This document shows positions 4,032 through 53,433 of a stretch of 64,000 bases of DNA, piece by piece (positions within the stretch are counted from its first letter, which is position 1; every line of letters begins with the position of its first letter). A program made the position numbers and the translations under genes. This DNA is from Schmidtea polychroa. Lineage: Eukaryota. Location: positions 210,738,001-210,802,000 of the forward strand of contig CM097885.1 in assembly GCA_044892525.1 (NCBI GenBank). Reading direction: 5' to 3'. A model generated the notes under the pieces. It was not told the DNA's origin and made no database searches. It worked only from the letters and a program-made list of their open reading frames with translations.

Positions 4032-5019
4032 GGACTACAGATCTTAACACAAATGACTCCAATAAATTAATTAAGATAAATAAATAAAAATAAATATAAA
4101 TAAGTTATATTTAAATGTGGTTGCGCGTCTAAATGTTCAAATCACTGAATTAAAAACAAAAACTCCTTTCTCTTTTTATAAAAATGTATTTTATAATTTA
4201 CAAATGAACTTTATAATATATGTACAAAGAGTACAAGAAAACGGATTTATTAATCCTTACTGTTTACCACAGCCTGCAAGAAATCGATGGCTCCTTTGTA
4301 GCACAACGATCGCTAAATAAATTGAAAAGATGATGGTAAAGCAAGAGGGCTGATTTTGGGGCCACCAGGTAACACGAAAGCCGCTATCTGTGCTTTGTGT
4401 TCGCTTTATTTTAACTGTCTCACTTCACAAGGATAATTATTTATCCTTACACAACTCGAATACTAAACTTCTTTTACCTTCTAGATTGATGGCTCCTTTT
4501 CCGTCTTTCTTTGTTTCACGATTCTGTTCAAATTTTTCTCCAGAAATATTCTCGCTCTCTTTCTTGTTTGTTCGGTTTGACAATTTATAGTCACTTTTCA
4601 AGTTTGAAATTGATCTGGAATTTGAGTTGGATTGTCGTCTGGTTGTTTGATGATCACAGTGATTCTTTAATCACGTTTTCTTTAAAAATAATAATAATTT
4701 TCTAAATTATTGTTTCAATTGTTTTTCCCACTTTCTTGCCAGTTTTCTTGTCCGCAAGTTATCGTCAATTTTATCGTCCCTTGGTTCTCGTTTTGAACCA
4801 GTATTTATATTACATTTTAATTAATTATTATCTTAATAGCAATTTTATAATTACTATATATAGTAATAGTATTATCAAATATTCCTATATATTACTTAAT
4901 TCTATTAATAGTAATTAATAAAACCTATCTTTTATTTTCAGTAATTTTTATTTATACTATTTCTAATTTTAGTAATTTTTATTTATTTAATCAACAAGGC
5001 TCCAGGCCTATCCCTAACA
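4032..5019 (-). repeat. 3' LTR (outer ~19 nt hidden in N run)
   Basis: Matches 18120-19160 except for two substitutions I could find and a 72-bp indel; on the element strand it begins TGTTAGGGAT at 5019. Confidence 0.95.
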
Positions 5020-5036
5020 AGTCTTACCCCCTAAAA
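5020..5036 (-). promoter_or_regulatory. Polypurine tract (plus-strand primer site)
   Basis: Element strand reads ttttAGGGGGTAAGAct immediately before the TG of the 3' LTR. Confidence 0.75.
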
Positions 5037-5346
5037 GATTTTCGTCTCGAAAACAAGACAAAACCAAGACCAAAGAAAAGCAATTGGTAAACAGTATTAC
5101 AATAAAACATAAAAATTATCAAATAAGACAAAACACAAAAATAAATGTTTCAGATCACAAATAATGAATGTCAAAACACAATAACACAAATCATAATAGT
5201 TAAGTCATTTTGTACACATTTGAATTTGACGACACGTGTTGGGTGGCAACACTCTCAGATTAGATATCCAGATCATCGGGATCTGGGTCGGGAACTTTGT
5301 AAAGGTGCAGCTCCTTTGTGCTGTAGCTATTCACAACGACGTATTG

Positions 5347-5997
5347 CTACAACAACTTCTTTTTTCTCTTCTGCAAGACTTCTGGCTCAAAACTCACTGC
5401 CAAGGGTTTACCATCCAGAGCACTCGTTAGTATGACTGTAGACACTACGTAAGGGATCCCGTCTACGTCATACACATCATATTTTTGATTATTATTGACT
5501 GCCATTCTCGTGACTGGTTGGCAGTCATACTCCTTCGTTCTGGGTTTCCATTTACTATCCGGACGTTTGTACCATATTGTTTCGAAACCGTCCACATCAA
5601 CCGAAACTGGTTTCTTGATGATATTCTCCTTGGCAATCTTGAACATTTTCTGTCTAACCACAGGTTCAGATTTAACCTTTATTGCTTCCTGCATCTCCTT
5701 AACTGGAGGTTGAAAGGCAACTTCCATAATGTCATCATCTGGTTCGCTGAATATCTTTTGAGGTTTATTATTCTTATCCTCCAAACTGCTGGGTGTTTCT
5801 TTTGTCGTTCCTTCCGACGGTTTAACAACTTTCTTCAACTTTAACTTCGACTTGTCTCTTTTTATGGGTAACATTTTCTTTAACATCTTTTTCACCTTGC
5901 CTCCTTCTGGATTTTCTTTTCTGACCGCACTATCCGATTTATCCTTTGGCTGATAGGCAGCTCCCGATGATTGTTTAGGTGATTTCGCTGTCTCCAT
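5347..5997 (-). CDS. Retroelement accessory ORF, 216 aa, Lys-rich, C-terminal NLS-like QKRKKKLL; function unknown
   Basis: Open ORF on the element strand between the exonuclease ORF and the 3' UTR; no family recognised. Confidence 0.6.
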   Translation of the reverse strand: METAKSPKQSSGAAYQPKDKSDSAVRKENPEGGKVKKMLKKMLPIKRDKSKLKLKKVVKPSEGTTKETPSSLEDKNNKPQKIFSEPDDDIMEVAFQPPVKEMQEAIKVKSEPVVRQKMFKIAKENIIKKPVSVDVDGFETIWYKRPDSKWKPRTKEYDCQPVTRMAVNNNQKYDVYDVDGIPYVVSTVILTSALDGKPLAVSFEPEVLQKRKKKLL

Positions 5998-6001
5998 TTC
6001 A

Positions 6002-7534
6002 CTAGCACATAGATATAGCTGGAGGTGGTAGATCCACAGGTGATTTTCTCTTAGGCTGTGGTTGTTCTGATGTAGATGGTTGCTCGGGTAATCTCCTCTT
6101 TTGCGTCATTTCCTGCTCAACTATTGCTGCTGTAGTTGCAGAAATGAATTCCTCCTGGGGTATCGTGATATGGTCTAACCATTCGTTTCTGATATGTAAA
6201 TAAACAGCACGTATTGCCAGTGCCTCATTGGTGACCACTAAATTCCTTGGTTCTCCGGGAACCGTACGTAGGAAAGTCTTTGTCAAGAATCCCAATCTGT
6301 AATGACCATGAATCTTTGGGACCCCTCTGGTTTCCAATAGTTTATTTGCAGAAAGATCACGAATACCCAATATTCGCTGCACTGGTAGATTGGCTACCGA
6401 GATCAGATCTTTAAGTAAAATAACTACAAGTATTTTCTTATCACAGATCTTTCTTATCAGATGATAACAATCGTCTTCGTCTAGGTTTCCTCTGATATCA
6501 GGTTCCTTTAACTTGTATTGGTGCGTTTGGTAGTGTTTTACAGGGTCTCTGGGAGTCACTACCGCACTCAATAAATTATTTCCTCTCATATCCATAATTG
6601 CGATTTGGATAATTGTCTCCTTCAATTCGATTCGGGATTTGGCAAAACCTGCCGATATGAAAATTGTAGCCTCGTCCTCCTCGGCTTTGGTTAACTTCTT
6701 CCTCACAAATGATTTACATTGCTGTATATCAGCTTCATTTACATTATAAATCCAAGTTGGCTCGTTTTTGCTAACTATAGAGTATGGTTTCCTGAAGTCT
6801 AAGATTTCCACTACGATTATGGTGTCCACCACCGCTGCCTGGATCATAATATTCCGTTCTCGTCCATCAGCGTGGTATATCTCCAGAGTACACTGTTTTT
6901 CTAATTCAACAGGTAGCTCTAAACCCGTCATAAACACAGTAAATGGCCTATTGATCGCATGGATCCAAATGTTTTCTACTTTCGGACATGAACCATACTC
7001 TCTACATAGTTCCCCCAATTTTAATCTACCTTGGTTATTTATAACCGTTACCATCATTTGCCTTGGAGGCCCTCCTGGGAATTTGAAGTCGTTTGGAATA
7101 TCCACTCTCCTGGGATAATACCAATAGTTTGAGGTGAGGTGATTCATCTTTGCTGCTACCGTGGTTCCGATGAACCGATATACATACTCTTCTTTATAGG
7201 TGCTATACACTTCAGTTTCGACTCGAGTTTGGGAATTGTAAGTTGCCAATGGGTGTCGTCGATTTGCTTTGACTGGCGGCTTTGATTCTCTGTTATAATT
7301 CATTTTTCTAAAAATAAAATAATTAACAGCTTTTATCACTTCCGTGATAGACCCTCGCAGGGTAACCAAAGTCGACATACGCTGATGTCTGATTTTACCG
7401 ATGCTCATTTGAGCCCACATTAGTCTACATACTAATATAAATAACATATAAAATAAATAGCTATATATATTTACACTTCCTAGTATATGGTGAGACTTTC
7501 TCCCTATACCTCGGTTTCGTAAATATTTTCCCAA
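6002..7534 (-). CDS. Accessory ORF with an unknown N-terminal domain and a REX4/ISG20-like DEDDh exonuclease domain (about 6170-6672), catalytically degenerate
   Basis: QIAIMDMRGNNLLSAVVTPRDPVKHYQTHQYKLKEPDIRG..IRKICDKKILV..KDL..IRDL..YRLGFLTKTFL..NEALAIRAVYLHIRNEW parallels REX4 RVSIVN..G..YDKYVKPTEPVTDYRTAVSGIRPENL..VAEMLKGRILV..NDL..IRDT..PSLRLLSEKIL..QDAQAAMRLY..KKEW; ExoI DxE appears as ISA. Confidence 0.75.
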   Translation of the reverse strand: MGKYLRNRGIGRKSHHILGSVNIYSYLFYMLFILVCRLMWAQMSIGKIRHQRMSTLVTLRGSITEVIKAVNYFIFRKMNYNRESKPPVKANRRHPLATYNSQTRVETEVYSTYKEEYVYRFIGTTVAAKMNHLTSNYWYYPRRVDIPNDFKFPGGPPRQMMVTVINNQGRLKLGELCREYGSCPKVENIWIHAINRPFTVFMTGLELPVELEKQCTLEIYHADGRERNIMIQAAVVDTIIVVEILDFRKPYSIVSKNEPTWIYNVNEADIQQCKSFVRKKLTKAEEDEATIFISAGFAKSRIELKETIIQIAIMDMRGNNLLSAVVTPRDPVKHYQTHQYKLKEPDIRGNLDEDDCYHLIRKICDKKILVVILLKDLISVANLPVQRILGIRDLSANKLLETRGVPKIHGHYRLGFLTKTFLRTVPGEPRNLVVTNEALAIRAVYLHIRNEWLDHITIPQEEFISATTAAIVEQEMTQKRRLPEQPSTSEQPQPKRKSPVDLPPPAISMC

Positions 7535-7941
7535 TAACGAATATCCCGTATGTTTAATCTAAACATCCAAAGGGTGGCTAATATCAAAATTAAAATCATG
7601 CAAATTACTCCCCCTATCATAATTAACAATAGCCATGTTGGCGTTTTATCTCTTGTTGTCCCCTTTAACGTATTTTGACAACTACAATTATTAATTATTT
7701 TAGTTATGCGGGGCTGTTTTACACTCGCTACCTTTCTAATACTGAACCAATCCAAAGCATTTATTCCTTTACAACCAGGAATACTCACTAACCTAGCCTT
7801 TCCTTCTTTGCTAGTTAGTTCTCCCTTTGTGGGAGGTAATAGATTTACTATTTCTTGATATATTGTATACCAACCGGTTTCTCCGTAAATTCCAAATACG
7901 AAATATTCGCCTTTGTCACGGTATCTGGTTTGATTGTCCAT
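7504..7941 (-). CDS. C-terminal part of a single-pass membrane protein (TM WLLLIMIGGVICMILILILATLWMF; tail ends ENIYETEV)
   Basis: Strong hydrophobic segment. The reading frame downstream of the TAG at 8067-8069 stays open to about 7850 and can join this ORF by +1 A at 7943-7946. Confidence 0.65.
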   Translation of the reverse strand: MDNQTRYRDKGEYFVFGIYGETGWYTIYQEIVNLLPPTKGELTSKEGKARLVSIPGCKGINALDWFSIRKVASVKQPRITKIINNCSCQNTLKGTTRDKTPTWLLLIMIGGVICMILILILATLWMFRLNIRDIRYWENIYETEV

Positions 7942-8066
7942 CTTTTACTTAGATACGCATGGTTGAGCACTAATCTCTCGACTTGCTGGTCATTTTCTAA
8001 TATGACGATTAACGCAATTTTATTATTCGTCCTCCAATCGTGAGTGGAAGATGTATCATTTCTTTT

Positions 8067-9482
8067 CTACTGTGGATGAGTAAATCTAACTATCTGCCCG
8101 AGATATGAAATCTCTACTTTTTTGGTAAATTTTGCAGTCTTCAAAATCCATGCTGCTTTATCTACACAATCTCCTCCATCTGCAAAAACGTTTGGGTCTG
8201 CAAAGAATGTCTTGATTTCTAATAGATAACTTGTATTCGGCATAAGTCCCTCTATTACTTTTACTCGATCCCGTGTATTCAAGTGAAATGATATCCCTCT
8301 TTCAGCAGCTACCAAATATAAATCATATCTGTGCCATTGTATATTCGTTAAATGAAATCTGAATGCTCTATCTGTTCGTTGGTATTCGATATCTGGATGT
8401 TGACTGGCTTTAGGTGTAAATACCTCGAATGCTTGTCCAATCATCATGACACAACTAATCACAGCTAGAAATGTAACTGTTTTCGGGATTTGCCGAGATC
8501 GTAAAGGGTATCGTTCCGGTTGTCCCTTTAGGATACTTTTATATGATTCTAACGTTTTCTTTTTCGATTTCTTATCTATTTCGAATTCATCAATATCGGA
8601 TTTTGGTTTCTCCTTTTCTGGTGGAGCTATCCTTTTACATCTGTTTGCATGAACCATAATCGGTTCTGCTTTTCTGTTTGCTACTAACTGCAAGACTAAA
8701 TTGGTTTCTGTAACTTTCAATATTTGATACGGCCCTTTGTAATTTCTCATTAATTTTGGAGATAAACCTTTTTTGTTGTAATGTCCTTCTAACATGACAT
8801 AATCTCCTACCAAAAACCCATGATCCTTCGCTTTACGATCATGATATTCTTTCATTGTTTCTTGGTTATAACGAATGTTCAAACCTGCTTTCTCCCAGGC
8901 TTCTTGCATTCTCTCTCTCATCTCGAATAAGTAATTTCCTTCGTCACAATTCTGTGAAGCTTTCGGATAAAATATAAGATCCACTGGCATCTTGCTATGC
9001 CTTAAATACATCAGATAGAAAGGTGTTTCTCCCGTTACTGAATGAACAGCATTTCTATACGCAGATAAACATGATGGTATGTGTACATCCCAGTCCGTCT
9101 GACCTGAGTTTACGTATGATGATAACATGTTTGCCAAGGTTCCATTGAACCTTTCTACCAATCCATCCGTCTGTGGGTGGTATGGTGAGGTATTTAATTT
9201 TAAAATACCAAAGTAGTCATTTATACTCTTTAACAGATTACTCATGAAATCCTTTCCTCTGTCGGTAAGTAATTTTGTTGGAACACCATATCTGAATACA
9301 ATTTGTTCTACAAAGATTCTGGCAATTGTGTCTGCCTTATGATTCGGAATTGGGAATGCTTCGGGCCACTTGGTTAAGTAATCGCAAAATACTATGATAA
9401 ATTTATTTCCCATCTTTGATTCTTTAAACGGTCCTAGTACGTCCATAGCAGTCATCTCCATTGGCGAGGACGGTACTGGCAT
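8067..9482 (-). CDS. pol: Integrase core plus GPY/F, followed in frame by a signal-peptide-like segment and an FN3-like domain
   Basis: AMDVLGP / LTDRGKDF / DGLVERFN (DDE), YKGPYQI, RYPLRSR; then TVTFLAVISCVMMIGQA and VIEGLMPNTSYLLEIKT (FN3 strand E-F signature like ITGLKPGTEYEVRV). Confidence 0.92.
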   Translation of the reverse strand: MPVPSSPMEMTAMDVLGPFKESKMGNKFIIVFCDYLTKWPEAFPIPNHKADTIARIFVEQIVFRYGVPTKLLTDRGKDFMSNLLKSINDYFGILKLNTSPYHPQTDGLVERFNGTLANMLSSYVNSGQTDWDVHIPSCLSAYRNAVHSVTGETPFYLMYLRHSKMPVDLIFYPKASQNCDEGNYLFEMRERMQEAWEKAGLNIRYNQETMKEYHDRKAKDHGFLVGDYVMLEGHYNKKGLSPKLMRNYKGPYQILKVTETNLVLQLVANRKAEPIMVHANRCKRIAPPEKEKPKSDIDEFEIDKKSKKKTLESYKSILKGQPERYPLRSRQIPKTVTFLAVISCVMMIGQAFEVFTPKASQHPDIEYQRTDRAFRFHLTNIQWHRYDLYLVAAERGISFHLNTRDRVKVIEGLMPNTSYLLEIKTFFADPNVFADGGDCVDKAAWILKTAKFTKKVEISYLGQIVRFTHPQ

Positions 9483-10632
9483 TGGTTTTAATGGAACATG
9501 CGGTTTCCTGCCTGTGTTTTCTGGTTATACATATCTTACACGATTGACACCACTTTTTAACATCATCTTTCATATCTGGCCAGAAGTATTTCATTTTTAA
9601 TCTTGACAGTGTATGTCTAGCTGAGAGATGTCCTCCCAGTGCTCCATCGTGGTATTGTAATAATAGTGATTCTCTGTATTTCTTTGGTACTAATATTACA
9701 TTATCCCTTGATTCAACGTATTTGATTAGACCTTCTTCCAATATGAATTTATCTTTATGTTTCTCCCAATATTTCTGAAATTCATTTGGTATGGCCTTTG
9801 CTTCTATAGCTTGTCTGATCATATTGATTTCGTCATCATTTTTCTGTGCTTCTACTAAATCGCTCAAAGTGTTAGCCTCTCTTGTTAGCATGAAGATTGT
9901 TCCTTCTAATCTTCCTTCATATATATCTTCTAACTCAGGCTCTTGCTCCATTCGTGATAATGCATCTGCATTACCATTAGCTTTACCTTTACGATATACA
10001 ATTTCGATATTATATGGCTGTAATCTCAATGCCCATCTGACTAACTTTGATGCTTCATCTCTATGTTTTAACAGCCATTGCAATGGTCTATGATCTGTAT
10101 AGAAAATTACCTTTCTACCCCATAGGTAATGACTAAATTTTTCCACTACAAATACTAACGCTAATGCTTCCAATTCTATTACAGCATAACTTTTTTCGTG
10201 TGGTTTCAATCCACGACTTGCATATGCTACTGCGTATTCATCGCCAATTTCGTCTTTCTGTCCCAAAACTGCACCTATACCTCTTGTGCATGCATCGGTC
10301 ATCACCATGAATTGTCTTTTAAAATCTGGAAATCGTAGAATTGGTGGTTTGCATAGTGCATCTTTTAACTTATCGAATGCCTGTTGCTGATCTTCTCCCC
10401 ATAAAAATTTTATACCTTTCTTTTCTAAGGTAGTTAAAGGAAAAGCTATTGCTGAAAAATTTCGTATAAATTTCCGATAATATCCCGTCAACCCTAAAAA
10501 TCCTTTGATTTGTTTCACATTCACTGGTTGTGGGAAATTCTTCACTTTATCCGTATTTGCCGGATCTGTTCTTACGCAATCGTGTGATATTAAATGCCCC
10601 ACGCAAATCACTTCCGATTCTGCCATTTGCAT
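9424..10632 (-). CDS. pol: RT thumb/connection, RNase H and integrase HHCC zinc finger
   Basis: GFLGLTGYYRKFI, TDACTRGIGAVL, ELEALAL, YTDHRPL, NADALSR, HDGALGGHL..CQSCKIC. Confidence 0.95.
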   Translation of the reverse strand: MQMAESEVICVGHLISHDCVRTDPANTDKVKNFPQPVNVKQIKGFLGLTGYYRKFIRNFSAIAFPLTTLEKKGIKFLWGEDQQQAFDKLKDALCKPPILRFPDFKRQFMVMTDACTRGIGAVLGQKDEIGDEYAVAYASRGLKPHEKSYAVIELEALALVFVVEKFSHYLWGRKVIFYTDHRPLQWLLKHRDEASKLVRWALRLQPYNIEIVYRKGKANGNADALSRMEQEPELEDIYEGRLEGTIFMLTREANTLSDLVEAQKNDDEINMIRQAIEAKAIPNEFQKYWEKHKDKFILEEGLIKYVESRDNVILVPKKYRESLLLQYHDGALGGHLSARHTLSRLKMKYFWPDMKDDVKKWCQSCKICITRKHRQETACSIKTNASTVLANGDDCYGRTRTV

Positions 10633-12773
10633 TTGCTTGGCTTTACTTTCAGGTTTGCCATAATCAATCTTTTGAAAATGTCTTCAAGATGTTCCAAATG
10701 TTTATCTAAATCTTCCGAGAAGATGATAATATCGTCTATATATACCATTGCGTGGTGTGCATCCATCAGCATGATATTCATTGCCCTCTGGAAAGTTGGA
10801 GGGGCTCCTTTTAATCCAAACGGCATTACTAAATATTCGAAATGATTGCTACTTGTAGAAAATCCTGTCATAGGAATTGAGTCTTCGCTCATCTTTATTT
10901 GATAAAAGCCTTTCTGTGCATCCATCACAGTAAACAACTTTGAATTTTTCATTTTATCATAAATGTAATCTAGCAAAGGTAGCGGGTGATTATCACTAAC
11001 TGTTTGTTCATTTAATTTCCTATAATCATTACATAATCTAACTGAGACGTCTCTTTTAGCTACAACCACCAAAGGTGAGGAATATGGAGATTTACTGGGT
11101 CTGATTATATTATATTTTTGCATTAATTTAATTTGTTTATCAACGGACCCTTGTATACTTTGAGGTATTCTATACGGGCGTATTTTTATCGGTTTATTTT
11201 CTGTTAATTTAATTTCATGCTCTAAAATATTAACTTGCCCTAGGTCATATTCGTGCTTTGCGAAAACTTGGTCATATTTACGTAATAATTGATTGACTCT
11301 GATATTTTCTTTTCTAGATAAATCTTTACTATCGCAGCTCGGTGCGTCGTAATATTCGATATCAGGATCTCGTTCATCCTCTTCTACTGATAATATCGAT
11401 TCAGACTCTTTCTGCATGTTAGAAAGTTGTATCACTTTACCCACTCTAGTCTCTGGGTATAATCTCAATGATTTGCTCGCTAGATTCGTTAATCTAATCG
11501 GGATCCTTCCTCCCCGTACTGTTGCCAAGTTTTGCACCATAGGCGTTTTATACCTATTTACGAACTGCTCACTCGGTTCGAAAATAACATCTCCTTCCAC
11601 CTCTTGGTGTGTTGCCACAAAATAAACTGTTTCGGTCCTCGGTGGTATTGTCACCGTTCTATCCAAAAACACTACATCCACACTGTAGGTTTTCCGTTTT
11701 CTACCCCTCATTTTCACTAATTCACCTGTTGCACAATCGAATACGATATCTTTTAACTTTTTCAATAAATCCATTCCCACGATACATTCTGCCATACATT
11801 GTCTAGTGACCTTGATATCGTGTCTAAATTTTTGATCACACAACCTTAATTCGCAATCTAATGTTCCGATAACATTGATAGGTTGTCCATTTGCTCCCGA
11901 TGCAACAGTTAATGTCGGCACTATTGCTTGTAATTCTTTTTCGTTTAATAAATTTGCTTCTATCAATGTCAAATCTGATCCTGAATCAATGATGGCATGT
12001 ACCGTATGCCTGTTAACTTTTAATTTGATCGTAGGTTTATGAGTCTTTTTACCCATATTGACCATTAGTATTGTTGAAATTCCTCTAATATTATCTCTGA
12101 ACTTTTGTTGATCATCACTATCTTTGTCATTTTCTGATTTTATTTCATCTTTATACTCTTCCTTTAGCCGTTCCAATGTGCTAAATGGATATTTAGGTAC
12201 CATCTCTAATACTGATGTACCCAAGGGTGGCATTGTCTCGAACTTCATTTTATACGTCGGGTATGAGGTAGATGGTAATATATCTGTATTTGTTCTAAAC
12301 TCGAACCTCTTTAACATTTCCTCTTCAACTCGTTCTGGTATTATCTTTTTTCTACCCTCATATGGTGACAAATAATTCACGGGCCACTCCTGGCGTTTCC
12401 TCCTTTTCGCTTTAACAGTGTATTGTTGTAAAGTACTATTTTCAAAATTTTGAAATTTCGGTTTTTTGTTGTCTGGTTTTATTGAGGTGTTGTCTGAGGT
12501 CTCATAGCCCTCTAGGTTACCTCCCTCGTCAGAATTGTCATCGTCTCGATGACTAGGTTCATACATTATTAACTCATGCTTCTTTATAGTTTGTCTCTTC
12601 ATTCTTTTAATCTCTTTATTATGATGATGAAATACTGCAAAATCTGCACAAACTGGACACATTCCTAGTAGCAACTTCCAAGACCATCCCCCGATCTTGA
12701 AGAAATAATTGAAGAAAATAATTGTGATATGATTATTTTCAATATCATCACTATTGCATATATACCTGAACAT
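10608..12773 (-). CDS. pol: Env C-terminal end and cytoplasmic spacer, aspartic protease, reverse transcriptase
   Basis: IGGWSWKLLLG (env-type membrane-proximal motif) at the start, AIIDSGSDLTLI protease, SPYSSPLVVV, RLCNDYRKLN, MPFGLKGAPPTFQ, VYIDDIIIF. Confidence 0.95.
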   Translation of the reverse strand: MFRYICNSDDIENNHITIIFFNYFFKIGGWSWKLLLGMCPVCADFAVFHHHNKEIKRMKRQTIKKHELIMYEPSHRDDDNSDEGGNLEGYETSDNTSIKPDNKKPKFQNFENSTLQQYTVKAKRRKRQEWPVNYLSPYEGRKKIIPERVEEEMLKRFEFRTNTDILPSTSYPTYKMKFETMPPLGTSVLEMVPKYPFSTLERLKEEYKDEIKSENDKDSDDQQKFRDNIRGISTILMVNMGKKTHKPTIKLKVNRHTVHAIIDSGSDLTLIEANLLNEKELQAIVPTLTVASGANGQPINVIGTLDCELRLCDQKFRHDIKVTRQCMAECIVGMDLLKKLKDIVFDCATGELVKMRGRKRKTYSVDVVFLDRTVTIPPRTETVYFVATHQEVEGDVIFEPSEQFVNRYKTPMVQNLATVRGGRIPIRLTNLASKSLRLYPETRVGKVIQLSNMQKESESILSVEEDERDPDIEYYDAPSCDSKDLSRKENIRVNQLLRKYDQVFAKHEYDLGQVNILEHEIKLTENKPIKIRPYRIPQSIQGSVDKQIKLMQKYNIIRPSKSPYSSPLVVVAKRDVSVRLCNDYRKLNEQTVSDNHPLPLLDYIYDKMKNSKLFTVMDAQKGFYQIKMSEDSIPMTGFSTSSNHFEYLVMPFGLKGAPPTFQRAMNIMLMDAHHAMVYIDDIIIFSEDLDKHLEHLEDIFKRLIMANLKVKPSKCKWQNRK

Positions 12774-14311
12774 CCTGCTACAAAAATGCCAAAGCTTGTA
12801 AATCTACCCCAGATTTTCCGTATTACATTTGATGCAGCTTGTTTGTAATGTTCTGGTCCAAATAACAAGTTATAGTCCGGTTTTCCATCATATGATTGAT
12901 AAATTCTTGTTATTATTTCTGTCACTCCCCGATCTCTGATTTGGGGAAATACAATTGCTCTCCGAGCTTCTTCAATATCTTCCGGAGTATATACTCCTCC
13001 TTTTGACATCTCGTTTAATGGTTGAAACTCCATTTTAGTTTCTAACTTTGTCGCTTGGAGCACTTCAACTGGTTTTGAAGGCGGCTTTCTGTCTGGCAAT
13101 GAAATCCAAATATTGTTAATTTTGTATAATGGTGACATTGCTGGATTGCAAATTGCTGTTAATGGTGAGGTATCCTCCTTTAATAACTGATGTGATACTG
13201 GCATTAGGAATCTCAATTTTCCTTTATATTTCACTGGTAACTCCAATGTACATCGATCATATTTGGTAATTTCCACCTCTATTGCTTTGCACTGATAGCT
13301 ATAAATTGCTTCACCCAAAATTCTGCCGAATGTTCCTTCCTCTGTCAACATTGGCATTATTAAATCAGGATTAGCTATAGATATTGCTAATCTGTTTCGT
13401 ATTATTTCCCGGTTTAAACGACAGTCGTTCAGGATCACTTCCTGATACACATCTAATAATTGTTTCTGTAAATCATGATACAAGAAATCAATCTTATTAT
13501 TGATATACTTGGCTATTTTAATATCTGATAGATGTAATGATTCTGCTGCTGGAACATATTTGTATGCTAAGTATATTCCCTTGTAATTTGTTTCAAATAT
13601 TGGTACACCGCATTTTGTTGTCTGTTTCTTTCTGACTAAACGAATTGCATCTGTGGGGTCCTTGGAGACTAATACTACTGCTGTGCTTTTCTCCGGTACT
13701 ACTTCCTTTTTTGTTTTGTGAGCTATCTTGTCTCCCCAACCACTTTGTTGTGAGTCCTGAGACGTAAAGCTTTTTCCATCTAACCTTGTAAATACTACCT
13801 TTTTCAGGTATCCCAAATCACAAAAATCTCTCATTGATTGATACGTTAATACTGCCAAACTGGTTTTACAATAACCATATTTCACGTTGCATTCTGGATG
13901 AGACATCATTTTTCCCGTGGATACTTCGAAAGTTCCTTCGTACTCGATCAGCTCTACTGTGTAGTACTCAACCGTTACCACATAGCTTACTACATTAGAA
14001 CCTCTTACTTTCTTTCTACCATGACAAGAACCATCATCTGCTATCGGTCCTCCCCGGGTAATAGTTATACCCAACTTTTTCCCTTCTTCTGCGGTAATTG
14101 TTACCTCATGATCTATTTTAACTGTTTTTGACCGAAAAGCATTTATACAATCCTCTGGTGGGATGACTAACGGTATCGGAATGAGTTTAGCTCCTAGAAA
14201 TGCTGAATAACTATTCGATCCACAGTAATATTCGAACGTCGCTCTCTGTATTCGACATTCCCTCACTCTGGTTCTGTAAAATTCTGTTTGCTGATAAACA
14301 TGATATTCCAC
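12665..14311 (-). CDS. env: Envelope glycoprotein ectodomain and TM, chuvirus-G / herpes gB-like class III fusogen; N-terminus (LTAYDC, from ~14418) lies in the upstream ORF
   Basis: Cys pattern and motifs AYDC, ECRIQRATFEYYCG, YINNKIDFLY, NDCRLNREII, GEAIYSYQC, ELPV, GGVYT and a C-terminal TM (FGIFVAGCSGIYAIVMILKIII) match my recollection of chuvirus-like glycoproteins. Confidence 0.8.
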   Translation of the reverse strand: MEYHVYQQTEFYRTRVRECRIQRATFEYYCGSNSYSAFLGAKLIPIPLVIPPEDCINAFRSKTVKIDHEVTITAEEGKKLGITITRGGPIADDGSCHGRKKVRGSNVVSYVVTVEYYTVELIEYEGTFEVSTGKMMSHPECNVKYGYCKTSLAVLTYQSMRDFCDLGYLKKVVFTRLDGKSFTSQDSQQSGWGDKIAHKTKKEVVPEKSTAVVLVSKDPTDAIRLVRKKQTTKCGVPIFETNYKGIYLAYKYVPAAESLHLSDIKIAKYINNKIDFLYHDLQKQLLDVYQEVILNDCRLNREIIRNRLAISIANPDLIMPMLTEEGTFGRILGEAIYSYQCKAIEVEITKYDRCTLELPVKYKGKLRFLMPVSHQLLKEDTSPLTAICNPAMSPLYKINNIWISLPDRKPPSKPVEVLQATKLETKMEFQPLNEMSKGGVYTPEDIEEARRAIVFPQIRDRGVTEIITRIYQSYDGKPDYNLLFGPEHYKQAASNVIRKIWGRFTSFGIFVAGCSGIYAIVMILKIIISQLFSSIISSRSGDGLGSCY

Positions 14312-16224
14312 GTCTTCCCTTTTTGCAACTTATCTGGATATGCTTCCTTGCATTCCACTGTGTCTACTAATGAGTAGATTCGCGATAGTATTGGTTCACT
14401 ACAATCATATGCCGTTAGGGAATTTGTCTGTCGCAATATTCCCATCATTACCAACAACATCATCATCCAACTAGTAAATCCACCTGTTCCCCGTGGACTA
14501 CTTGAAATATTTTCTGTCAACAACTCTTCATTCAATTCATATTTTCCTTTCGTTTCTTTTATATCCCAAAACTTGTGCTCCGTCATCCATGTTCCGAAAT
14601 TCACTTCGGTGATATCAGTCAGCTTGTCTATAGCTGCTGGAATTTTCGACGATTCATCTTTAATTATGCTTAATGCATTTTTAAACATTAAGGCTAGAAT
14701 CGTTATCATTTTCCCTTTCGTCAGGCCTTCATCTATGAATTGCCCTGCTATTTCGAACATCTCCTGTTCCTGGAATCTTTTCCATAGCTTTCTTGACTTT
14801 TCTGCAATTTTGTCAACATTAACACTTTTATCTTTCTTAATTTGCCAATCGGGTTTGATCAGTCGTAAGATTTGATTTAATCTTTTCCATGTTTCCGTTT
14901 TATCACTAGCGTCTCCAACGCTTTTATCAATTTGGCTAGCTATCCCTGCTAAAGCCTGCTTAGTTACATTTTGTATTGTAACTGGTTTTAGAAGTTCTCT
15001 TGGAGGCGGGTTCATTTGACTTTTCCTCGGTCTACCCTTTCTCTCCCTTTTCTTTTTATTCTCTATTAACTTCGGGCTCACCCTTGCTCTTGGTGGCTCG
15101 ACTTGTCGCGATGTACTAGCTCCAACGTTTGTTTCATCTTGATTTAATTGTACTTCATTATCTTCCTCTGTCGGAAATATTTCGATCAACTCGTCTTCAG
15201 TGTTATCGAGTTCCTTGAGATACTTATCTATCTCTTCATCTAAATCTACTGTAGTTACGGGTTCCTGATGAGTATTCCCGTCTACTTGTTTTTGCTCAGG
15301 ATGTACTGTTTCATCCTCCATTTCAGCATTATCTGGCAATCTCAATGTTGCCCATTGATCCTCTGGAAACTCTACCAGTAATATTAATACGACTGTTTCC
15401 TCATTGGGAAAACATCCAACATCTACTAGAAATTCGTCGTCATCCACCTGACAACCATGTATCATTATTAGGAATGACTCTTTTAATATTTCTGATATCC
15501 TTTTTCTCAGTTTCTTTACCCTATGATAACATGAGAATTGTTGTATCAGGTGTCCTCTCCTGGGTATCCTGATCTCTAACGTCACTGGACCTTGTATACC
15601 TTCCAAATGCCTGATAGCATGTCCATTTTTAATCAACAGCATCTTTGTTTGTGTCTGAAATTGTGATGTCTCTTTTACTAAAGGCACCACCAATGGCATT
15701 ATCTCTCTAAGAGTATATACTGGGATTCGCAACTCCAGTATCCAATCCATTATCATCTTAATGGCTTCCCCATCTCTTGGGTTTTTCATCAGCTCGATTC
15801 CCAATCTATGTGGTACGGCTGATATTTGATTTAACTGATCAATTTCCATCTCGCTTATTGTAAGGACATTATCCAAGTCCACTACTGTAACAGTTTCCTT
15901 GTGAAACTTTGCTTTTATGACAATACTTTTCCCTGGTAATATACCACAATCTAACAGGGTTTCTCCCTCTAATAATCTTTCTCCCAACAAATATAGTTTA
16001 CATCTCAATTGAGGTTTTACCACAGAAACTCTCTTTGCCAATGCTTCTACCTTTTGACTTGGGTTAATTGTATATCTACGAAAACAACTTTTTGGGAAAG
16101 ATACAAAAATTGTAGAATCCTCCAGATTTTCTCTTTGTTTCCAATTTAGGCCAATATTTCTCAGAATTTCTCTCAATTCTGGATAATATTCCTCATTTCT
16201 GTCTAACTCTGATATGATATCCAT
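14263..16224 (-). CDS. 653 aa ORF: two (possibly three) ubiquitin-like domains, acidic linker, AT-hook/NLS-like KGRPRK, helical region, signal peptide and env N-terminus
   Basis: IFVSFPK..YTINPSQKVEALAKRV..KLYLLGERLLEGETLLDCGILPGKSIVI (15907-16110) and VTLEIRIP..RVKKLRKRIS..LIMIHGCQVDDDEFLVDVGC..VVLILL (15373-15585) follow the ubiquitin pattern; WMMMLLVMMGILRQTNS precedes LTAYDC. Confidence 0.75.
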   Translation of the reverse strand: MDIISELDRNEEYYPELREILRNIGLNWKQRENLEDSTIFVSFPKSCFRRYTINPSQKVEALAKRVSVVKPQLRCKLYLLGERLLEGETLLDCGILPGKSIVIKAKFHKETVTVVDLDNVLTISEMEIDQLNQISAVPHRLGIELMKNPRDGEAIKMIMDWILELRIPVYTLREIMPLVVPLVKETSQFQTQTKMLLIKNGHAIRHLEGIQGPVTLEIRIPRRGHLIQQFSCYHRVKKLRKRISEILKESFLIMIHGCQVDDDEFLVDVGCFPNEETVVLILLVEFPEDQWATLRLPDNAEMEDETVHPEQKQVDGNTHQEPVTTVDLDEEIDKYLKELDNTEDELIEIFPTEEDNEVQLNQDETNVGASTSRQVEPPRARVSPKLIENKKKRERKGRPRKSQMNPPPRELLKPVTIQNVTKQALAGIASQIDKSVGDASDKTETWKRLNQILRLIKPDWQIKKDKSVNVDKIAEKSRKLWKRFQEQEMFEIAGQFIDEGLTKGKMITILALMFKNALSIIKDESSKIPAAIDKLTDITEVNFGTWMTEHKFWDIKETKGKYELNEELLTENISSSPRGTGGFTSWMMMLLVMMGILRQTNSLTAYDCSEPILSRIYSLVDTVECKEAYPDKLQKGKTWNIMFISKQNFTEPE

Positions 16225-16236
16225 TACTTTGTCAAC

Positions 16237-17962
16237 CTAATTCTCATTAACGGGGTTTAAACGAATATTTTCTAATTTCTGTCTCATTTCTCTTTGCCAT
16301 ACCCTCTTGCGTAATAATACTTTTCTACAGTCATCGATGGGATTTCTTTCCTCTTTCGATGCTTCTCTAACCTTTATTGGTTCGCTACCACACTCACCTC
16401 GCACGGATGATGTGGCTATAAGAACTTCCGGCTCACTGACCGAAGCCCATCTTTTTTCCAAAACCTCTGTTGGAACAATTACATTAGCTACTGGATCCAT
16501 GTCCTTACGATTTTTAACTGGTGAAACCGGTAAACCTTCTATTTCTCTGTTGGCTTCTGGCTCCCTGGCCATAGCCACTAGATTTTCCTGGGTGAAACCT
16601 GTAAACCCTCACAGACCTCTGGTTCTATGACCATAGTCTTTTCCTCTTTGTCCTCCCTTGAACTCACTTGAAGCATCAACACTTCAAGTTCTACATAATT
16701 ATTTTTATTTCGCCTTTTTCTGGCTGATGTCATATAAACACCTTCATTTTCATCGTACCCATCAGTTTCATTTGTTGTTAGCCTTGCTAACCTGTTTCTC
16801 TCTTCTTGAATTTCTAATTCAAGCTGCTGCAAATACGTTAATTTGTGGTCTGAATTCACTGCAAACGTTGTCTGCTTTGATCGATTATTACCATTGTTGC
16901 CACTACCATTATTATTAGATAACTGATTCTGTGGACATGAACGCATAATATGACCAAATTTTCCACACTTATGACATTTAATTTTACCCCCCGAATTTAC
17001 TTCATCCCTTTAAATATTATTATTAAAATTATTATTTCTACTCTGAAAATTATTATTATTATTATTACCACGAAAATTCATATGGGGGCTTCTATTTCTA
17101 TTACTGTTATTATTTGAATTATTCCCCCCAAAACTAGCTTTACAAACTGACGCTACATGTCCTTTGCGCTTGCATTTCTCACAATTTAGGTCCGAAATTC
17201 TACAGTTTGATGCCAGCTGATTATTTCTCCCACACTTTGTACATAATTTGTCCCCTGGAGAATTATTCCTACTTTTACAATCTTTTGACATATGTCCCTT
17301 TTTGTGACAATTAAAAGACTCAATGTCTGACTTATTGCTACTAATTGCAAAATTATTTGACTTTTCAATGCTACTTCAATTAAACACGCTTTGCGAGTTA
17401 ATTCCTCTAAATTATCTCCTATGTGTAAACTGAGTGCATTTCTCATTGCAGACGATAACCCTGACCAAAACTGATCTTTCACTAATGCTCTAGTCGCATC
17501 ATTCCAGGCTGCCCTATTGCCAAATGCTCTCTCTGCCAACATCATTATTTGATATGAAAATTCCCCAACATGCTCACCCGAATTTTGTCGCCTGTTATAA
17601 AACTGTTGTCTCAGCACTCTAGTTGCATCCCCCGGTAATATTCTGTTTTGTAACGCTAATCGCAATACGTTCCATTCAACTGGATGCTCGGCTATTATAA
17701 CATCGTTATATATTTCCCGCGCCATCCCTTTTAAATATAAAGGTAATCTCAAAATCATTACCGGTTCCGGGAATCCTAATGCTCTGGCTAACTGAAAATA
17801 TTCGGACATAAATTGCGGAAACTCTCCTGGGTTTCCACTAAATGGTTTAATCGTAATTGTTGGGTATCTCATAAAATCTACCGCTGGTGGTTGAGCTACT
17901 GGCACATTATTATTTTCTAAATTATTCTCGTTTAAATTTTGTAAATTATTTATCTCTGCCAT
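16237..17962 (-). CDS. gag: Gag (capsid, four CCHC knuckles, C-terminal extension), split by two 1-nt slips and one in-frame TAA
   Basis: IKPFSG, LPLYLKG.A, RRQNSGEHVGEFSYQIMMLAERAF capsid motifs; knuckles SFNCHKKGHMSKDC, CTKCGRNNQLASNC, CEKCKRKGHVASVC, CHKCGKFGHIMRSC. ORFs 17010-17291 and 16578-16946 are in the same frame across the TAA at 17010-17012. Confidence 0.9.
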
Positions 17963-18079
17963 TATTTGCTGGTTTCTATTACCTGGTCTTAAATTTATTA
18001 CCCTTCTATTTCTTAACTCAATGATTCAAAAAGATGTTTGCCTTTTATAAATAAAATTCTTATTCCCCCCGTAAATTGT

Positions 18080-18097
18080 ATCACGTCGGGCTCACCA
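18080..18097 (-). promoter_or_regulatory. Primer binding site, tRNA-Trp
   Basis: Element strand TGGTGAGCCCGACGTGAT, 3 nt after the LTR-terminal CA; 17/18 identical to the tRNA-Trp PBS TGGTGACCCCGACGTGAT. Confidence 0.88.
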
Positions 18098-18100
18098 AAA

Positions 18101-19160
18101 TGTTAAGATCGAAAAACGGGGACTACAGATCTTAACACAAATGACTCCAATAAATTAATTAAGATAAATAAATAAAAATAAATATAAATAAGTTATATTT
18201 AAATGTGGTTGCGCGTCTAAATGTTCAAATCACTGAATTAAAAACAAAAACTCCTTTCTCTTTTTATAAAAATGTATTTTATAATTTACAAATGAACTTT
18301 ATAATATATGTACAAAGAGTACAAGAAAACGGATTTATTAATCCTTACTGTTTACCACAGCCTGCAAGAAATCGATGGCTCCTTTGTAGCACAACGATCG
18401 CTAAATAAATTGAAAAGATGATGGTAAAGCAAGAGGGCTGATTTTGGGGCCACCAGGTAACACGAAAGCCGCTATCTGTGCTTTGTGTTCGCTTTATTTT
18501 AACTGTCTCACTTCACAAGGATAATTATTTATCCTTACACAACTCGAATACTAAACTTCTTTTACCTTCTAGATTGATGGCTCCTTTTCCGTCTTTCTTT
18601 GTTTCACGATTCTGTTCAAATTTTTCTCCAGAAATCTTCTCGCTCTCTTTCTTGTTTGTTCGGTTTGACAATTTATAGTCACTTTTCAAGTTTGAAATTG
18701 ATCTGGAATTTGAGTTGGATTGTCGTCTGGTTGTTTGATGATCACAGTGATTCTTTAATCACGTTTGCTTTATTGTAGACAACTGTTGAACTTCTTAACT
18801 TAATTTTGATCAACAACAGTGATTCTTTAATCACGTTTTCTTTAAAAATAATAATAATTTTCTAAATTATTGTTTCAATTGTTTTTCCCACTTTCTTGCC
18901 AGTTTTCTTGTCCGCAAGTTATCGTCAATTTTATCGTCCCTTGGTTCTCGTTTTGAACCAGTATTTATATTACATTTTAATTATTTATTATCTTAATAGC
19001 AATTTTATAATTACTATATATAGTAATAGTATTATCAAATATTCCTATATATTACTTAATTCTATTAATAGTAATTAATAAAACCTATCTTTTATTTTCA
19101 GTAATTTTTATTTATACTATTTCTAATTTTAGTAATTTTTATTTATTTAATCAACAAGGC
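18101..19160 (-). repeat. 5' LTR (outer ~19 nt hidden in N run)
   Basis: Ends GATCTTAACA on the element strand; 72 bp longer than the 3' LTR. Confidence 0.95.
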
Positions 19161-28956: not shown

Positions 28957-31900
28957 AAAAAGGTGGAGCTTAAAAAATAAAAAAAAATAAAAAAATAATT
29001 TTTGAAAGTCTTACCCCCTAATCTGTTCCTTATGGTATAGAAACACTGTATAAAAAGTTTAAGCAATAAATTTTTATGTTTAGAGGTAGCTCAAGTGCCT
29101 GAAATATGATAAAATTTTTGTAAATTCAACAAATTCTGATTCTATTTTATTTTTTTGCAAACTTCAGTGTTACACACATAGACATTAATAGTGAAATGTT
29201 TCTTTAGCTTCTGACACAAACAATCTGTAAATGTCCAGCAAATTTGAAATTAACTGTTATTATGTAAACCCAGAGATGGCGGACAGAGTCTTTTTCCTGC
29301 TGTTGGGATACATTTTGCGATGGTCCTGGACAACTTGCAGCAAGAATTGAAGTTGTGTTTCATCACGGGTGATTAATCCACTGTATTCCTGAATGAGGGC
29401 CACTCCACGCTCAGCATGGTCATTTACAACTTTTAGAGATGTAACTGTTTCTGCAGCTTGTTTGTAATCATCTCTGTCTCCCCACAAGTCTGGGTCAACT
29501 GCAAGAAATCCATCTGGCAGTTCAAGCTGTTGAAGCAGAATCATTGATTTAGCTGTGACAAAATCTTCCAAGTTTTTCTCTTTGAATGAACCAAGAGTAA
29601 CTGTGATACGTTTGCAATGATCAGAATCCTGGTTTTCATCATTTTGCATGGCACTCACCATCAGTCGTTTGGTTGACGAACTGACCCGACTGTCGAAAAA
29701 AGCCAAGCTTACCAGTTTCTCAGATAAGTACCACAAATGATTTGCAAACTTGCGAGATGTTGCCTTTGAAATGGCTGCATGTATTGATGAGTACTCGAGC
29801 AGCGACTTCAGCAGCAGCAAGTCACTGAATGGAGCACCTGCTGCTTGAGGTGCAGATATCCAAGCTTTCAGGTACACTCGTACTGCAAATACACAAACAT
29901 CACGCAACCCTCGCTCTTCTGCAGTAGTCAGCTTGAACTGCGCCTTGAACATCCAAATTTTTAGGCTGTATATCACCTTGGACATCCAACGAGCATGGTG
30001 CATTGCACCAGGTGCCATGAACCGTACACCTCTGGGAGGAGCAGCACCGAGGAAGACAATTACAAGTTCCAAGAATTCTTTATAGTCATCTCTCGGCTGA
30101 CTCTGTTCAAGATACTTGTTGGCATAATCGATGGTGTCTTGCTTTATATCCTCCAGTAAACTTGCTACGTCATCAGCTGTAGTGCCTGCTTCATACTTAG
30201 CCGTATCTATAAATCTCCAGAACTCTTGAAAGCGTTTGAAGAGTGCAACTTCTGGGGAGGATGAGGCTCCCATGCAGACCTGGAAAACTGCCCCAATTAT
30301 CAGTTCCATAATGTGGTGCCTACAAGCCAGTGATAACAACTCCTTCTGAAGCTTCTGCTCTAACAGTACACAAGCACCAGCAATCCGACCAGTGTTTGAG
30401 CTAGTAGTGTCAAAACACATAGCTCGGATATTCTTGGCTATGCCCCAGTCTTTGATGGCTTCATATACAGCAGCAGCCTGAGCTTCGCCTGTTCCAGATG
30501 GAAGCTTAGCAACTGTAAGTAGCTGAGATACTCCTTTTCCAGAAACCAAAACCGGCAGTCGATCAACCTTCTCCTTTCCAATCAGATCAGGAATCAGTTT
30601 GCCGTCCCAATGAACTACAAGTGGTACATTATCCTGGAACTTTGCTTTTATGTTGGCAGCTCTCTGAACTCGATGTTCTACCCTAAGTCGTCGAATCGAG
30701 TCTCTGTTTAGAACAAGTTCATCGATGTTCTGTCCCAGGCTTTTAGCAGTTTTTGCAATAACGAAAACAGCCTTGCGATCTGACACTTTAGTTCTATCTA
30801 AAGCTACTGCAAGTTCTGGAGTAATAACAGTTTTTCGCCCCCTCTTTCTTTTTGGCGTCCGAAATGTGCTGCCTCCTGCAGCATCATCACTCAGATTTTC
30901 TCCACTTTTCATGTTTCCACCATCTAAGCTGGTTTCAGAAGATGACGATATCAGTTCAGCGGTAGAAGCTGCTAACTGCTTCACTTGCTCCATTCGCTGT
31001 CGCCTCGCAAGCATTTGCTTATCTCGTTCAAATGATCTTTTCTCCTTAGCAGCAAGTTTTTCATCTGCACCAGTCATCGACCCCCTTCTTCCTTTTTCTC
31101 TCTGGGCTAACAAGAAATTTTTATCTTCCTGTAGTACCGAGGGGCTGGTCAGTGCATCAGCATGAGCAAGATCAAAGAGATCTTCGAGCTTGGAACTAAA
31201 AGCTGATTCTCTCGCTAGTTGAGTTGCTGATAATCGTGCCTTGTTCTTTTTCAGAAGACGCCATTCTTCAAATGCATGCTCAACCTTGGTTTGGCAGTTT
31301 TGATGATCTCTCATCGGGATCCTCGCTTTCTGCCAAAACTTCGATACTTCTGTAATGGTAACAGCCGATGATTGTCTTATTGTCTCTTTCAGTTCCAGAT
31401 GGTGATGTAGGAAGAGTCCAAGAGCCATACGTAAAGATGGCAGCTTGCTGCCACGTAACTGAGTCACGGAATCGCCAAGAAGATACAACTCAGTTTGAGA
31501 TCGTGTTGCTTTTGCAACTGATGACATTTTCTTACAGAAATGAATATTATAAAAATAGCATTGACTTTGGAATCATGGATTGATATGTTAATTTGAATAA
31601 TTGTATTACAAAATTCACATTTACTTATCTAACTAATCTATATCTTCATTTAATTACTATTCACACTTAAACATTGAAAATAATATTCAATATTCAAATA
31701 ACATTCAACTAACTTACCAGCAGCTATAGATTCAGGAAGGCTTGCTTCACTTCAGTGGCCTACCAGCAATTTAATGCTCACTTTAATAGTAGTGTTATCA
31801 ACTGTTTACAATTTAAATTTATAAACACATTTGTCAAACTCCTGCAATAGCCAGTCCACACAGTAAACATACTAAACAAGTCTGATCATGCCTGGACTAT

Positions 31901-32188
31901 GAAGAATTTGTGTTAATTGTATATTGTAAAAATAGGATTGAAATGTTGTATGATTATCAGAGTCTGAGAAAGTCTCAATTTACTTAGTTCTCATTTACTA
32001 TAGTAAAGTACCGTAAATAAATGGGCGGCCGCTGCTTGAGAGTATCAGAAACTTCTCTGTCCTTGAGCTACCCCTAAATATTGTTCAATTGTGTTCATAT
32101 TTTGCCTGAATTTTTCTTTCATATATAGGAACAGAATGGGAGGGTAAGAAGGTAATATTTTGAAAGTTCAAAAATAAGCTCCACCCTA
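28957..32188 (-). mobile_element. hATm-like DNA transposon with intact transposase
   Basis: Right TIR TAAGCTCCACCCTA, degenerate left TIR aaaaaGGTGGAGCTTA, subterminal inverted blocks (ttagaggtagctcaag 29080 / cttgagctacccctaa 32062), candidate 9-bp TSD TTATATAAT (28948-28956, 32189-32197). Confidence 0.7.
29260..31527 (-). CDS. hATm-type DDE transposase, 755 aa, uninterrupted
   Basis: VVHWDGK, MCFDTTSSNTG, LACRHH, HHARWM, NHLWYLSE, VVNDHAERG motifs. Confidence 0.85.
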   Translation of the reverse strand: MSSVAKATRSQTELYLLGDSVTQLRGSKLPSLRMALGLFLHHHLELKETIRQSSAVTITEVSKFWQKARIPMRDHQNCQTKVEHAFEEWRLLKKNKARLSATQLARESAFSSKLEDLFDLAHADALTSPSVLQEDKNFLLAQREKGRRGSMTGADEKLAAKEKRSFERDKQMLARRQRMEQVKQLAASTAELISSSSETSLDGGNMKSGENLSDDAAGGSTFRTPKRKRGRKTVITPELAVALDRTKVSDRKAVFVIAKTAKSLGQNIDELVLNRDSIRRLRVEHRVQRAANIKAKFQDNVPLVVHWDGKLIPDLIGKEKVDRLPVLVSGKGVSQLLTVAKLPSGTGEAQAAAVYEAIKDWGIAKNIRAMCFDTTSSNTGRIAGACVLLEQKLQKELLSLACRHHIMELIIGAVFQVCMGASSSPEVALFKRFQEFWRFIDTAKYEAGTTADDVASLLEDIKQDTIDYANKYLEQSQPRDDYKEFLELVIVFLGAAPPRGVRFMAPGAMHHARWMSKVIYSLKIWMFKAQFKLTTAEERGLRDVCVFAVRVYLKAWISAPQAAGAPFSDLLLLKSLLEYSSIHAAISKATSRKFANHLWYLSEKLVSLAFFDSRVSSSTKRLMVSAMQNDENQDSDHCKRITVTLGSFKEKNLEDFVTAKSMILLQQLELPDGFLAVDPDLWGDRDDYKQAAETVTSLKVVNDHAERGVALIQEYSGLITRDETQLQFLLQVVQDHRKMYPNSRKKTLSAISGFT

Positions 32189-52852: not shown

Positions 52853-53433
52853 TTCTTTATATTTGAATGTCAATTTTACAAAACCATATATTTTTTACAT
52901 TATTATTTGAATTTTTATATTTTGGAAAATGAAAAATTTATTATATATTAATATTTGATAGCATGATTGAATTTAATTTTCTATCTATTTGTCTATTTGT
53001 CTATAATAAAAATGTTGATTTGGAAATGATATTTTCAACACTCATGCAAATTTTTGTTTTTTCGTTAAGTATAACATTATATTAATATTTTTCTAAATTA
53101 TTGAAAATATTAACTGTTGAAAAAGATTGCATAAAAAATCCATAAAAATGTCACATCAATATAATGTACAAATTGTCTGCTTGCAACTGATTCAATTTAG
53201 ATTTATGGAATTCTGTTTATCAAAAGTCGACTCTTGATATTTGTAATGTAAATTCTCAGCTTGGCAATTCTTGGTTTTCAACTTTAGCCGTTCACTTGTT
53301 GAAGTCATTCAATTAATTTGTAGCCGTTATATTAATAAATAAATAATAATAATCAACATAAACATCGCTAGTATATAAGGACTGATAAAAATAGTATAAA
53401 CAATATATATAAGCAAATCGAAACAATTCAAGA

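Follow-up and report, generated by a model that had tools for sequence, protein, structure and literature searches.

A planarian Ty3/gypsy retroelement whose unbroken copies encode Gag, Env and Pol in one frame, probably as a membrane-threaded polyprotein

A long retroelement in a 64,000-nucleotide stretch of Schmidtea polychroa DNA (GenBank assembly GCA_044892525.1, contig CM097885.1, forward-strand positions 210,738,001 to 210,802,000; the whole stretch is called the window here) raises the question of whether an envelope-bearing Ty3/gypsy element can hold its structural, membrane and enzymatic modules in a single polyprotein. The element occupies 4032-19160 of the minus strand, on which all of its features described below also lie, and a preliminary description had read it as a gag, a long membrane-threaded reading unit that could be joined from 16224 to about 7504 by repairing single bases, and two further open reading frames (ORFs). 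We find that unbroken copies hold one frame of 3,495 codons that runs from Gag through Env and Pol to a second predicted membrane protein. Probably the product is one polyprotein, predicted to be threaded through the endoplasmic reticulum (ER) membrane four times and cut by signal peptidase and by the element's own protease.

That the window holds a Gypsy-like element, as first proposed, is borne out by its long terminal repeats (LTRs), its primer-binding site and the order of its Pfam domains. About 15 kb lie between two long direct repeats, the 5′ LTR at 18098-19160 (inner end TAACA near 18101) and the 3′ LTR at 4032-5019, both with their outer ends masked by N; in sister copies the full LTRs measure 1,072-1,146 nt and run from TGTTA to TAACA. 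An 18-nt primer-binding site (18080-18097), complementary to the 3′ end of the host tRNA-Trp(CCA), starts three bases inside of the 5′ LTR, and a polypurine-tract-like stretch (5020-5037) adjoins the 3′ LTR. Target duplications of 4 bp are readable in two sister copies, and the terminal features of Ty3/gypsy elements are all present (direct LTRs of the TG..CA type, primer site, purine tract, short target duplication). The visible parts of the window's LTR pair give 967 matches, 2 mismatches and 1 gap. The family is young and recently multiplying, because in eight of nine copies the LTR pairs differ by 0-2 mismatches, the pair of the remaining copy not being anchorable. The window copy is itself broken and incapable of making the polyprotein, since its ORF1 carries seven frame changes and at least three stops and its ORF2 one frame change and one stop. 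Nearly identical LTRs (two mismatches, one gap) here enclose about a dozen disabling changes; possible readings are that the template was broken before it was copied, that gene conversion took place, or that the assembly is in error. Genes for tRNA-Trp(CCA) form a tandem array with a period of 284 bp (G000:C4 from 55.02 Mb, locus L075), and the tRNA-Trp(CCA) pattern has 856 matches genome-wide, element primer sites among them. Five of eight measured copies, which were not randomly chosen, are embedded in (TAA)n microsatellites, which flank them on either side (flanks of L021-L040; 3770-3820 in the window).

The reading frame of the element was taken from its sister copies. A 1-kb probe of the genome returned 203 candidates, of which 40 were scored, with 93-97% identity when the window itself is excluded, and the sister-copy sample consists of the best-scoring 20 of the 39 scored non-self matches. 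In 10 of these 20 copies, three of them units of one tandem array, an unbroken frame of 3,263 codons covers all 9,992 bases that reach from the zinc knuckles to the last transmembrane (TM) segment; the remaining ten carry breaks, which are mostly copy-specific. Towards the 5′ end, one open frame leads from the gag ATG to env in all ten sister stretches, which by coordinates brings ORF1 to 3,495 codons. Towards the 3′ end, the exonuclease-like and basic regions form one ORF in nine of ten sister stretches (775 codons in eight). Because the gag/env and the exonuclease/basic frames are continuous in sister copies, the element has two ORFs, and the extra breaks of the first reading are decay. The long reading unit proposed from repaired bases is therefore real, half of the sister copies being open without repair, whereas the separate gag and the separate exonuclease and basic ORFs had to be given up; nor do intact copies keep the parts of the long unit as separate ORFs, ten of twenty being in a single frame. 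The many pieces of the window copy might still suggest that the long unit is an artefact, produced by joining decayed, unrelated fragments or nested insertions, but this reading is refuted by the ten natural copies that are open without repair and by independent families that repeat the layout, and we give it practically no weight. An assembly chimera as the source of the layout was also rejected.

Six lineages were compared: families A (that of the window), B, C and D (Burro-1-like), and the loci L061 and L067. An Env profile search of the genome gave 2,580 candidates, of which 68 were scored. Of ten loci taken from this list, eight belong to family B and two to family C, with the module order of family A; family B has the single-frame layout, and family C shows the matching order in broken copies. 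A search of the genome for BIR domains (309 candidates) led to family D (L085-L091), whose single-frame ORF1 reads MATH, ubiquitin-like domain (Ubl), AT-hook, Bcl-2-like domain, Env, Pol, ankyrin and a second membrane protein made up of signal-like segment, ectodomain and TM, after which TRAF-like and IAP-like (BIR plus RING) proteins are encoded by ORFs of their own. Metagenome contigs gave 11 related loci. L061 (protein P0002, the sole match of the env search among long proteins) has an ORF1 of 3,181 amino acids and an ORF2 homologous to that of the window, and the distant L067 has a single frame of 2,693 codons with the two-signal layout, without Ubl or Bcl-2. A single frame is retained across lineages with 27-45% Env identity. 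A reverse transcriptase tree of loci from the genome and contigs, with one outgroup, did not separate families A, B/C and D, L061 and L067 into a branching order, and the reverse transcriptase of the window's family is 43% identical to that of family D.

In full, ORF1 encodes Gag, two modules of a helical bundle plus Ubl, an AT-hook-like motif, a Bcl-2-like domain, a signal, Env, a TM segment, protease, reverse transcriptase, RNase H and integrase (PR-RT-RH-IN), a second signal, an ectodomain, a TM segment and a PDZ-type tail. From the Ubl modules to the last TM segment this is the order first read from the window, where the Bcl-2-like domain had been overlooked. Ratios of nonsynonymous to synonymous substitution rates (dN/dS) were obtained pairwise for a divergent subfamily (L079-L082) against L004, L021 and L031; of the four subfamily loci, one is ORF2 only and another part of ORF1 only, so that ORF1 data come from three. 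The ratios are 0.00-0.38 across all modules, values biased downward by a filter that removes divergent codons (about 110 of 260 codons were kept in the second ectodomain), and there is purifying selection on every module. The linkers between modules also stay open, at dN/dS 0.08-0.38. Between subfamilies the synonymous rate is uneven, from about 0.1 in gag up to at least 1.2 in ORF2, which is a sign of recombination between them.

The open linkers bear on a different account, in which the genes share one frame but spliced or subgenomic RNAs yield most of the products separately and the full polyprotein is rare. Foamy viruses express pol from such RNA, and enveloped retroelements do not usually make Gag and Pol in equal amounts, which favours this account. 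Splicing, however, needs neither open and constrained linkers nor a frame kept across 27-45% Env identity, and we consider separate products improbable. Contigs from four runs cover the element in short pieces, none of them spanning, and say nothing on expression or splicing.

ORF1 starts with Gag (16929-17962, ATG at 17960-17962), which has a capsid-like region and four CCHC zinc knuckles (Pfam zf-CCHC) and, on inspection of its sequence, no obvious matrix domain. The interval between Gag and Env was modelled by AlphaFold as two repeats of a helical bundle and a ubiquitin fold, placing helical bundle 1 and Ubl 1 at 15904-16341 and helical bundle 2 and Ubl 2 at 15376-15843. Fold searches returned ubiquitin matches for both Ubl domains (E 3.6e-8; Z up to 10.0, root-mean-square deviation 2.4 over 77 residues), and the first also has a PDB profile match. 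Neither domain terminates in Gly-Gly, and dN/dS is 0.14-0.26. A TFIIS-N-like identity for the helical bundles was not borne out, the fold lists being filled by ubiquitin folds. At 15019-15042 a motif with an RGRP core, which we take to be AT-hook-like, is also present in L065 and in the Burro-1-like family, and none was seen in families B and C. The next domain (14554-14964) is Bcl-2-like and degenerate in the window's family; a seven-sequence profile of it returned Bcl-xL or Bcl-2 in all 60 rows shown (best Bcl-xL E 7e-6), and dN/dS is 0.11-0.12.

Env follows a predicted internal signal peptide (14419-14493), which was placed by hydropathy and by a conserved distance ahead of the start of env across six lineages. 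It is a chuvirus/gB-type fusion glycoprotein ectodomain with a TM anchor (12707-14418), lies between signal and TM, and matches Pfam Monjiviricetes_fusion (PF24664) at E 3.2e-68 in the window and 8.7e-82 in a second Pfam scan. The ectodomain is full-length and of class III type, with dN/dS of 0.02-0.08; a sequence search gave no PDB match. Behind the Env anchor come an aspartic protease (DSG; Pfam RVP) and a putative dUTPase-like spacer (together 11412-12041), the spacer being named by position only, after the published account of Burro (PMC6431247). The spacer is conserved (dN/dS 0.03-0.04) and has no Pfam match, dUTPase included. Reverse transcriptase (YIDD) and RNase H occupy 10012-11204 (Pfam RVT_1, RT_RNaseH), and integrase, assigned from Pfam and sequence (HHCC, DDE core, GPY region), 8496-9690. 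The order PR-RT-RH-IN and the catalytic motifs are those expected of Ty3/gypsy (Metaviridae), and the four enzymes have dN/dS of 0-0.02. A YPLRS motif at the integrase end resembles the nucleosome anchor, or chromatin-binding sequence, of foamy virus as given in PMC12125541.

Directly behind integrase, hydropathy and conservation predict a second membrane protein (7507-8492) composed of signal 2, an ectodomain of ~260 amino acids, a TM segment and an 18-residue tail ending in ETEV. The final TM segment of ORF1 is strong, and the ectodomain has dN/dS of 0.21-0.25. A post-integrase membrane segment was found in all six lineages, the Burro-1-like family included. Signal-like segments stand directly before the env start and directly after integrase in six of six lineages each, and two signal-like and two TM-like segments occupy matching places in families A, B, C and D and in L061. 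ORF1 ends of the class I PDZ type occur in four of six lineages, against 17 of 650 background frames, the lineages being related and not independent draws. As for the ectodomain, which the preliminary description had called FN3, ESM Atlas (0.89, ten of ten matches in the FN3 clan) and phmmer (E 1.7e-8 to one five-repeat fn3 protein) support that assignment; there was no Pfam or PDB-profile match, the AlphaFold model of four sequences (predicted local distance difference test, pLDDT, 30) had no reliable fold, and a profile of six putative FN3 repeats matched nothing in PDB. An FN3-like fold is thus a lead only.

The conserved places of signals and TM segments within one frame support, as an inference, the earlier proposal that the polyprotein alternates between cytosol and lumen, in a more extreme form now that gag is fused to it. 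Gag, the two helix-Ubl modules and the Bcl-2-like domain would be made in the cytosol. Signal 1 would then send Env to the lumen and, once cut, could remain behind and, as a tail anchor, keep Gag and the Bcl-2-like domain membrane-bound, while the Env anchor would stop transfer and leave PR-RT-RH-IN as a cytosolic loop. Signal 2 would send the second ectodomain to the lumen, with the last TM segment as its anchor and the PDZ-type tail behind it. Signal peptidase would cut twice, and the element protease would free the capsid and the enzymes. Gag, Env and Pol would be made in equal amounts, with Pol packaged through its covalent link to the Env tail and with no need for frameshifting or splicing. 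In this scheme Env is the likely fusogen, the second membrane protein a likely attachment or membrane-targeting factor, and the Bcl-2-like and Ubl modules would probably modulate cell death and protein turnover in the host.

Several points, besides the downward bias of the dN/dS values, weigh against this scheme. The topology rests on hydropathy, and the number of membrane crossings could differ, because families B and C have a weaker hydrophobic segment after the Env anchor (Kyte-Doolittle hydropathy, KD, 2.21) and L067 has two hydrophobic segments before env. The Env anchor in L061 and L067 and signal 2 in family D fall below the hydropathy cut-off. The second ectodomains of family D, L061 and L067 align poorly with that of family A, so that one shared function can at most be supposed. 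The Bcl-2-like domain scores below the Pfam cut-off wherever it was matched (E 0.0086 in the family A copy L021, 0.0027 in family B and 1.3e-5 in family C), has no Pfam Bcl-2 match in the window's own stretch, and gave an AlphaFold model with pLDDT below 50 and no usable fold.

The same polyprotein could also serve a different end, with Env and the second membrane protein moving the element between touching cells and no free virions being formed. PDZ-type tails in four of six lineages suggest targeting to junction scaffolds, and the lack of an obvious matrix domain in Gag points the same way. Yet a membrane-anchored Gag could stand in for a matrix, and the Env ectodomain is full-length, of class III type and constrained (dN/dS 0.04), as it is in elements that PMC13524379 regards as proviruses. 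Transfer confined to cell contact is, in our judgement, rather unlikely, and the polyprotein scheme without that restriction is preferred.

ORF2 (5263-7447; 775 codons from stop to stop) is open in sister copies and consists of an N-terminal domain without assignment, an ISG20/REX4-like exonuclease fold (6164-6691) and a basic, low-complexity C-terminal part. It aligns at 26% identity with the corresponding ORF of family C, which matches ISG20L2 at E 6e-10 and, in copy L050, keeps most DEDDh residues. In the window's family, in contrast, the ExoI acids of the DEDDh set (ExoI D-x-E, ExoII D, ExoIII H and D) are absent from all 14 matched stretches and from the window itself, so that the family does not qualify; the 'DEDDh exonuclease' first proposed does not stand, and an active exonuclease was rejected. 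Purifying selection on ORF2 is nonetheless strong (dN/dS 0.04-0.08, and 0.04-0.05 in the exonuclease-like part). Judged by its residues, the exonuclease-like domain is likely dead, and ORF2 would then likely be a non-catalytic RNA-binding protein or a decoy. A homologue search with ORF2 residues 40-480 covered 6,828 candidates between 405 and 1,292 residues long and found none. A long tandem array (G000:C3:106.49-107.22 Mb, period about 2.87 kb) contains part of ORF2. A family C copy (L049/L050) lacks reverse transcriptase and most of integrase; its Env and second membrane protein persist, as does an ORF2 whose exonuclease motifs are near-intact, and the copy is likely a non-autonomous derivative.

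How far does this organisation depart from known systems? Drosophila errantiviruses such as gypsy and ZAM carry Env of F type as a separate 3′ ORF. The element in the window shares their Ty3/gypsy Pol, LTRs and possession of an envelope gene, but its Env is in frame, before pol and of gB type, which sets it outside the classical insect errantiviruses, defined by a separate 3′ F-type Env ORF. The nematode NERVs of Sacco et al. 2022 reportedly have one continuous gag-env-pro-pol frame, with a helicase as accessory ORF in place of Ubl, Bcl-2 or exonuclease. Among the closest systems is Burro, whose ORF1 contains Gag, Ubi2/SUMO-like and BCL-2 domains, an in-frame mononegavirus-like Env, protease, a dUTPase-like domain, reverse transcriptase, RNase H and integrase, and whose in-frame Env between gag and pol was presented as the first such case (PMC6431247). 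Burro/GYPSM1 and the element in the window share one ORF1 with a CCHC Gag, Ubl/SUMO-like and BCL-2-like domains before Env, and Env in frame between gag and pol. Burro/GYPSM1, on the other hand, is over 30 kb long with 4,873 residues and has MATH, BIR and ankyrin domains, whereas the element in the window is about 15 kb long with 1.1-kb LTRs and 3,495 residues, has by Pfam none of these domains (family D carries them), and adds two helix-Ubl modules and an exonuclease-like ORF2. The signal-ectodomain-TM unit after integrase is absent from the Burro account as far as its available text goes, yet the Burro-1-like family D has one. The element thus resembles Burro in its working, but in size and cargo it is not Burro proper.

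GAG-ENV-POL elements have also been described from nematodes (the NERVs, cited there with Env before pol), bryozoans and flatworms, six of them from one planarian (PMC13524379). With the HSV/gB-type errantiviruses of Platyhelminthes in that account, the element in the window shares the module order, a gB/chuvirus-type Env, Ty3/gypsy Pol and many young copies; it has gag-env-pol in uninterrupted frames and multiple near-identical copies, and it belongs to this group. The nearest listed relative is Smed_errantivirus_4, about two-thirds identical by eye over the Env stretch; no primer site is called for the Smed elements in PMC13524379, whereas the tRNA-Trp site is evident here. The listed elements nearest to families A and C share only some two-thirds to three-quarters of positions with them. 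The Env stretch of family B (L041-L048, L053-L060) is identical by eye to that of Smed_errantivirus_2 at 245 of 251 positions, which would point to recent between-species transfer, if the host is another species. An extra 3′ ORF with a DEDD-family exonuclease is known from the bdelloid LTR elements Juno and Vesta, where it is ORF3 (PMC5408684). Theirs is DEDDy/RNase D-like with its catalytic residues kept, in elements without env, while that of the window's family is ISG20/REX4-like (DEDDh), accompanies an Env and has lost its acids.

The combination of modules had at first been thought undescribed. For the core this does not hold, as a Gag-Ubl-BCL2-Env-Pol frame (PMC6431247) and GAG-ENV-POL elements (PMC13524379) are on record, and a core layout published in 2019 caps the surprise. 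The post-integrase membrane protein, the ISG20-like ORF and the threading model were not found described in the text of the literature searched, although figures, Repbase and the sequence repository of PMC13524379 may show the post-integrase segment or ORF2; in the main text of PMC13524379, so far as available, the words ubiquitin, fibronectin, exonuclease, accessory and fused are absent.

Should the processing take place as proposed, it would constitute a different form of retroviral assembly. Neither frameshifting nor a spliced env would be required, Pol would travel attached to the tail of Env, and a residual signal peptide would anchor Gag, an arrangement like that of the polyproteins of positive-strand RNA viruses. 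The pairing of a class III fusogen with another surface protein would resemble herpesviruses, in which fusion and attachment are divided between proteins. We also put forward, as a speculative and rather doubtful extension, that Burro-type elements might be infectious enveloped retroviruses, with a gB-type fusogen and a fast-evolving post-integrase attachment protein held on PDZ scaffolds, an Env signal that anchors viral Bcl-2 and Gag, and a dead ISG20-like ORF2 that would counter the RNA decay of the host as a shield or decoy. In planarians, PIWI knockdown can de-repress Burro RNA (PMC8532177). Young and abundant elements in model animals would make cell-to-cell movement of env elements from invertebrates other than insects testable on native material.

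Outside the element, the window contains a 3.2-kb DNA transposon-like repeat (28960-32188) that has terminal inverted repeats and includes a frame of 770 codons, for which Pfam gives no significant match; a copy of this repeat inserted in L019 (1947-4697) is 98% identical, with a 9-bp duplication at its flanks. Pfam further identifies frames for a pogo/Tigger-type DDE transposase (39195-40370), a ligand-gated ion channel (53413-54699) and a tubulin (56535-57173).

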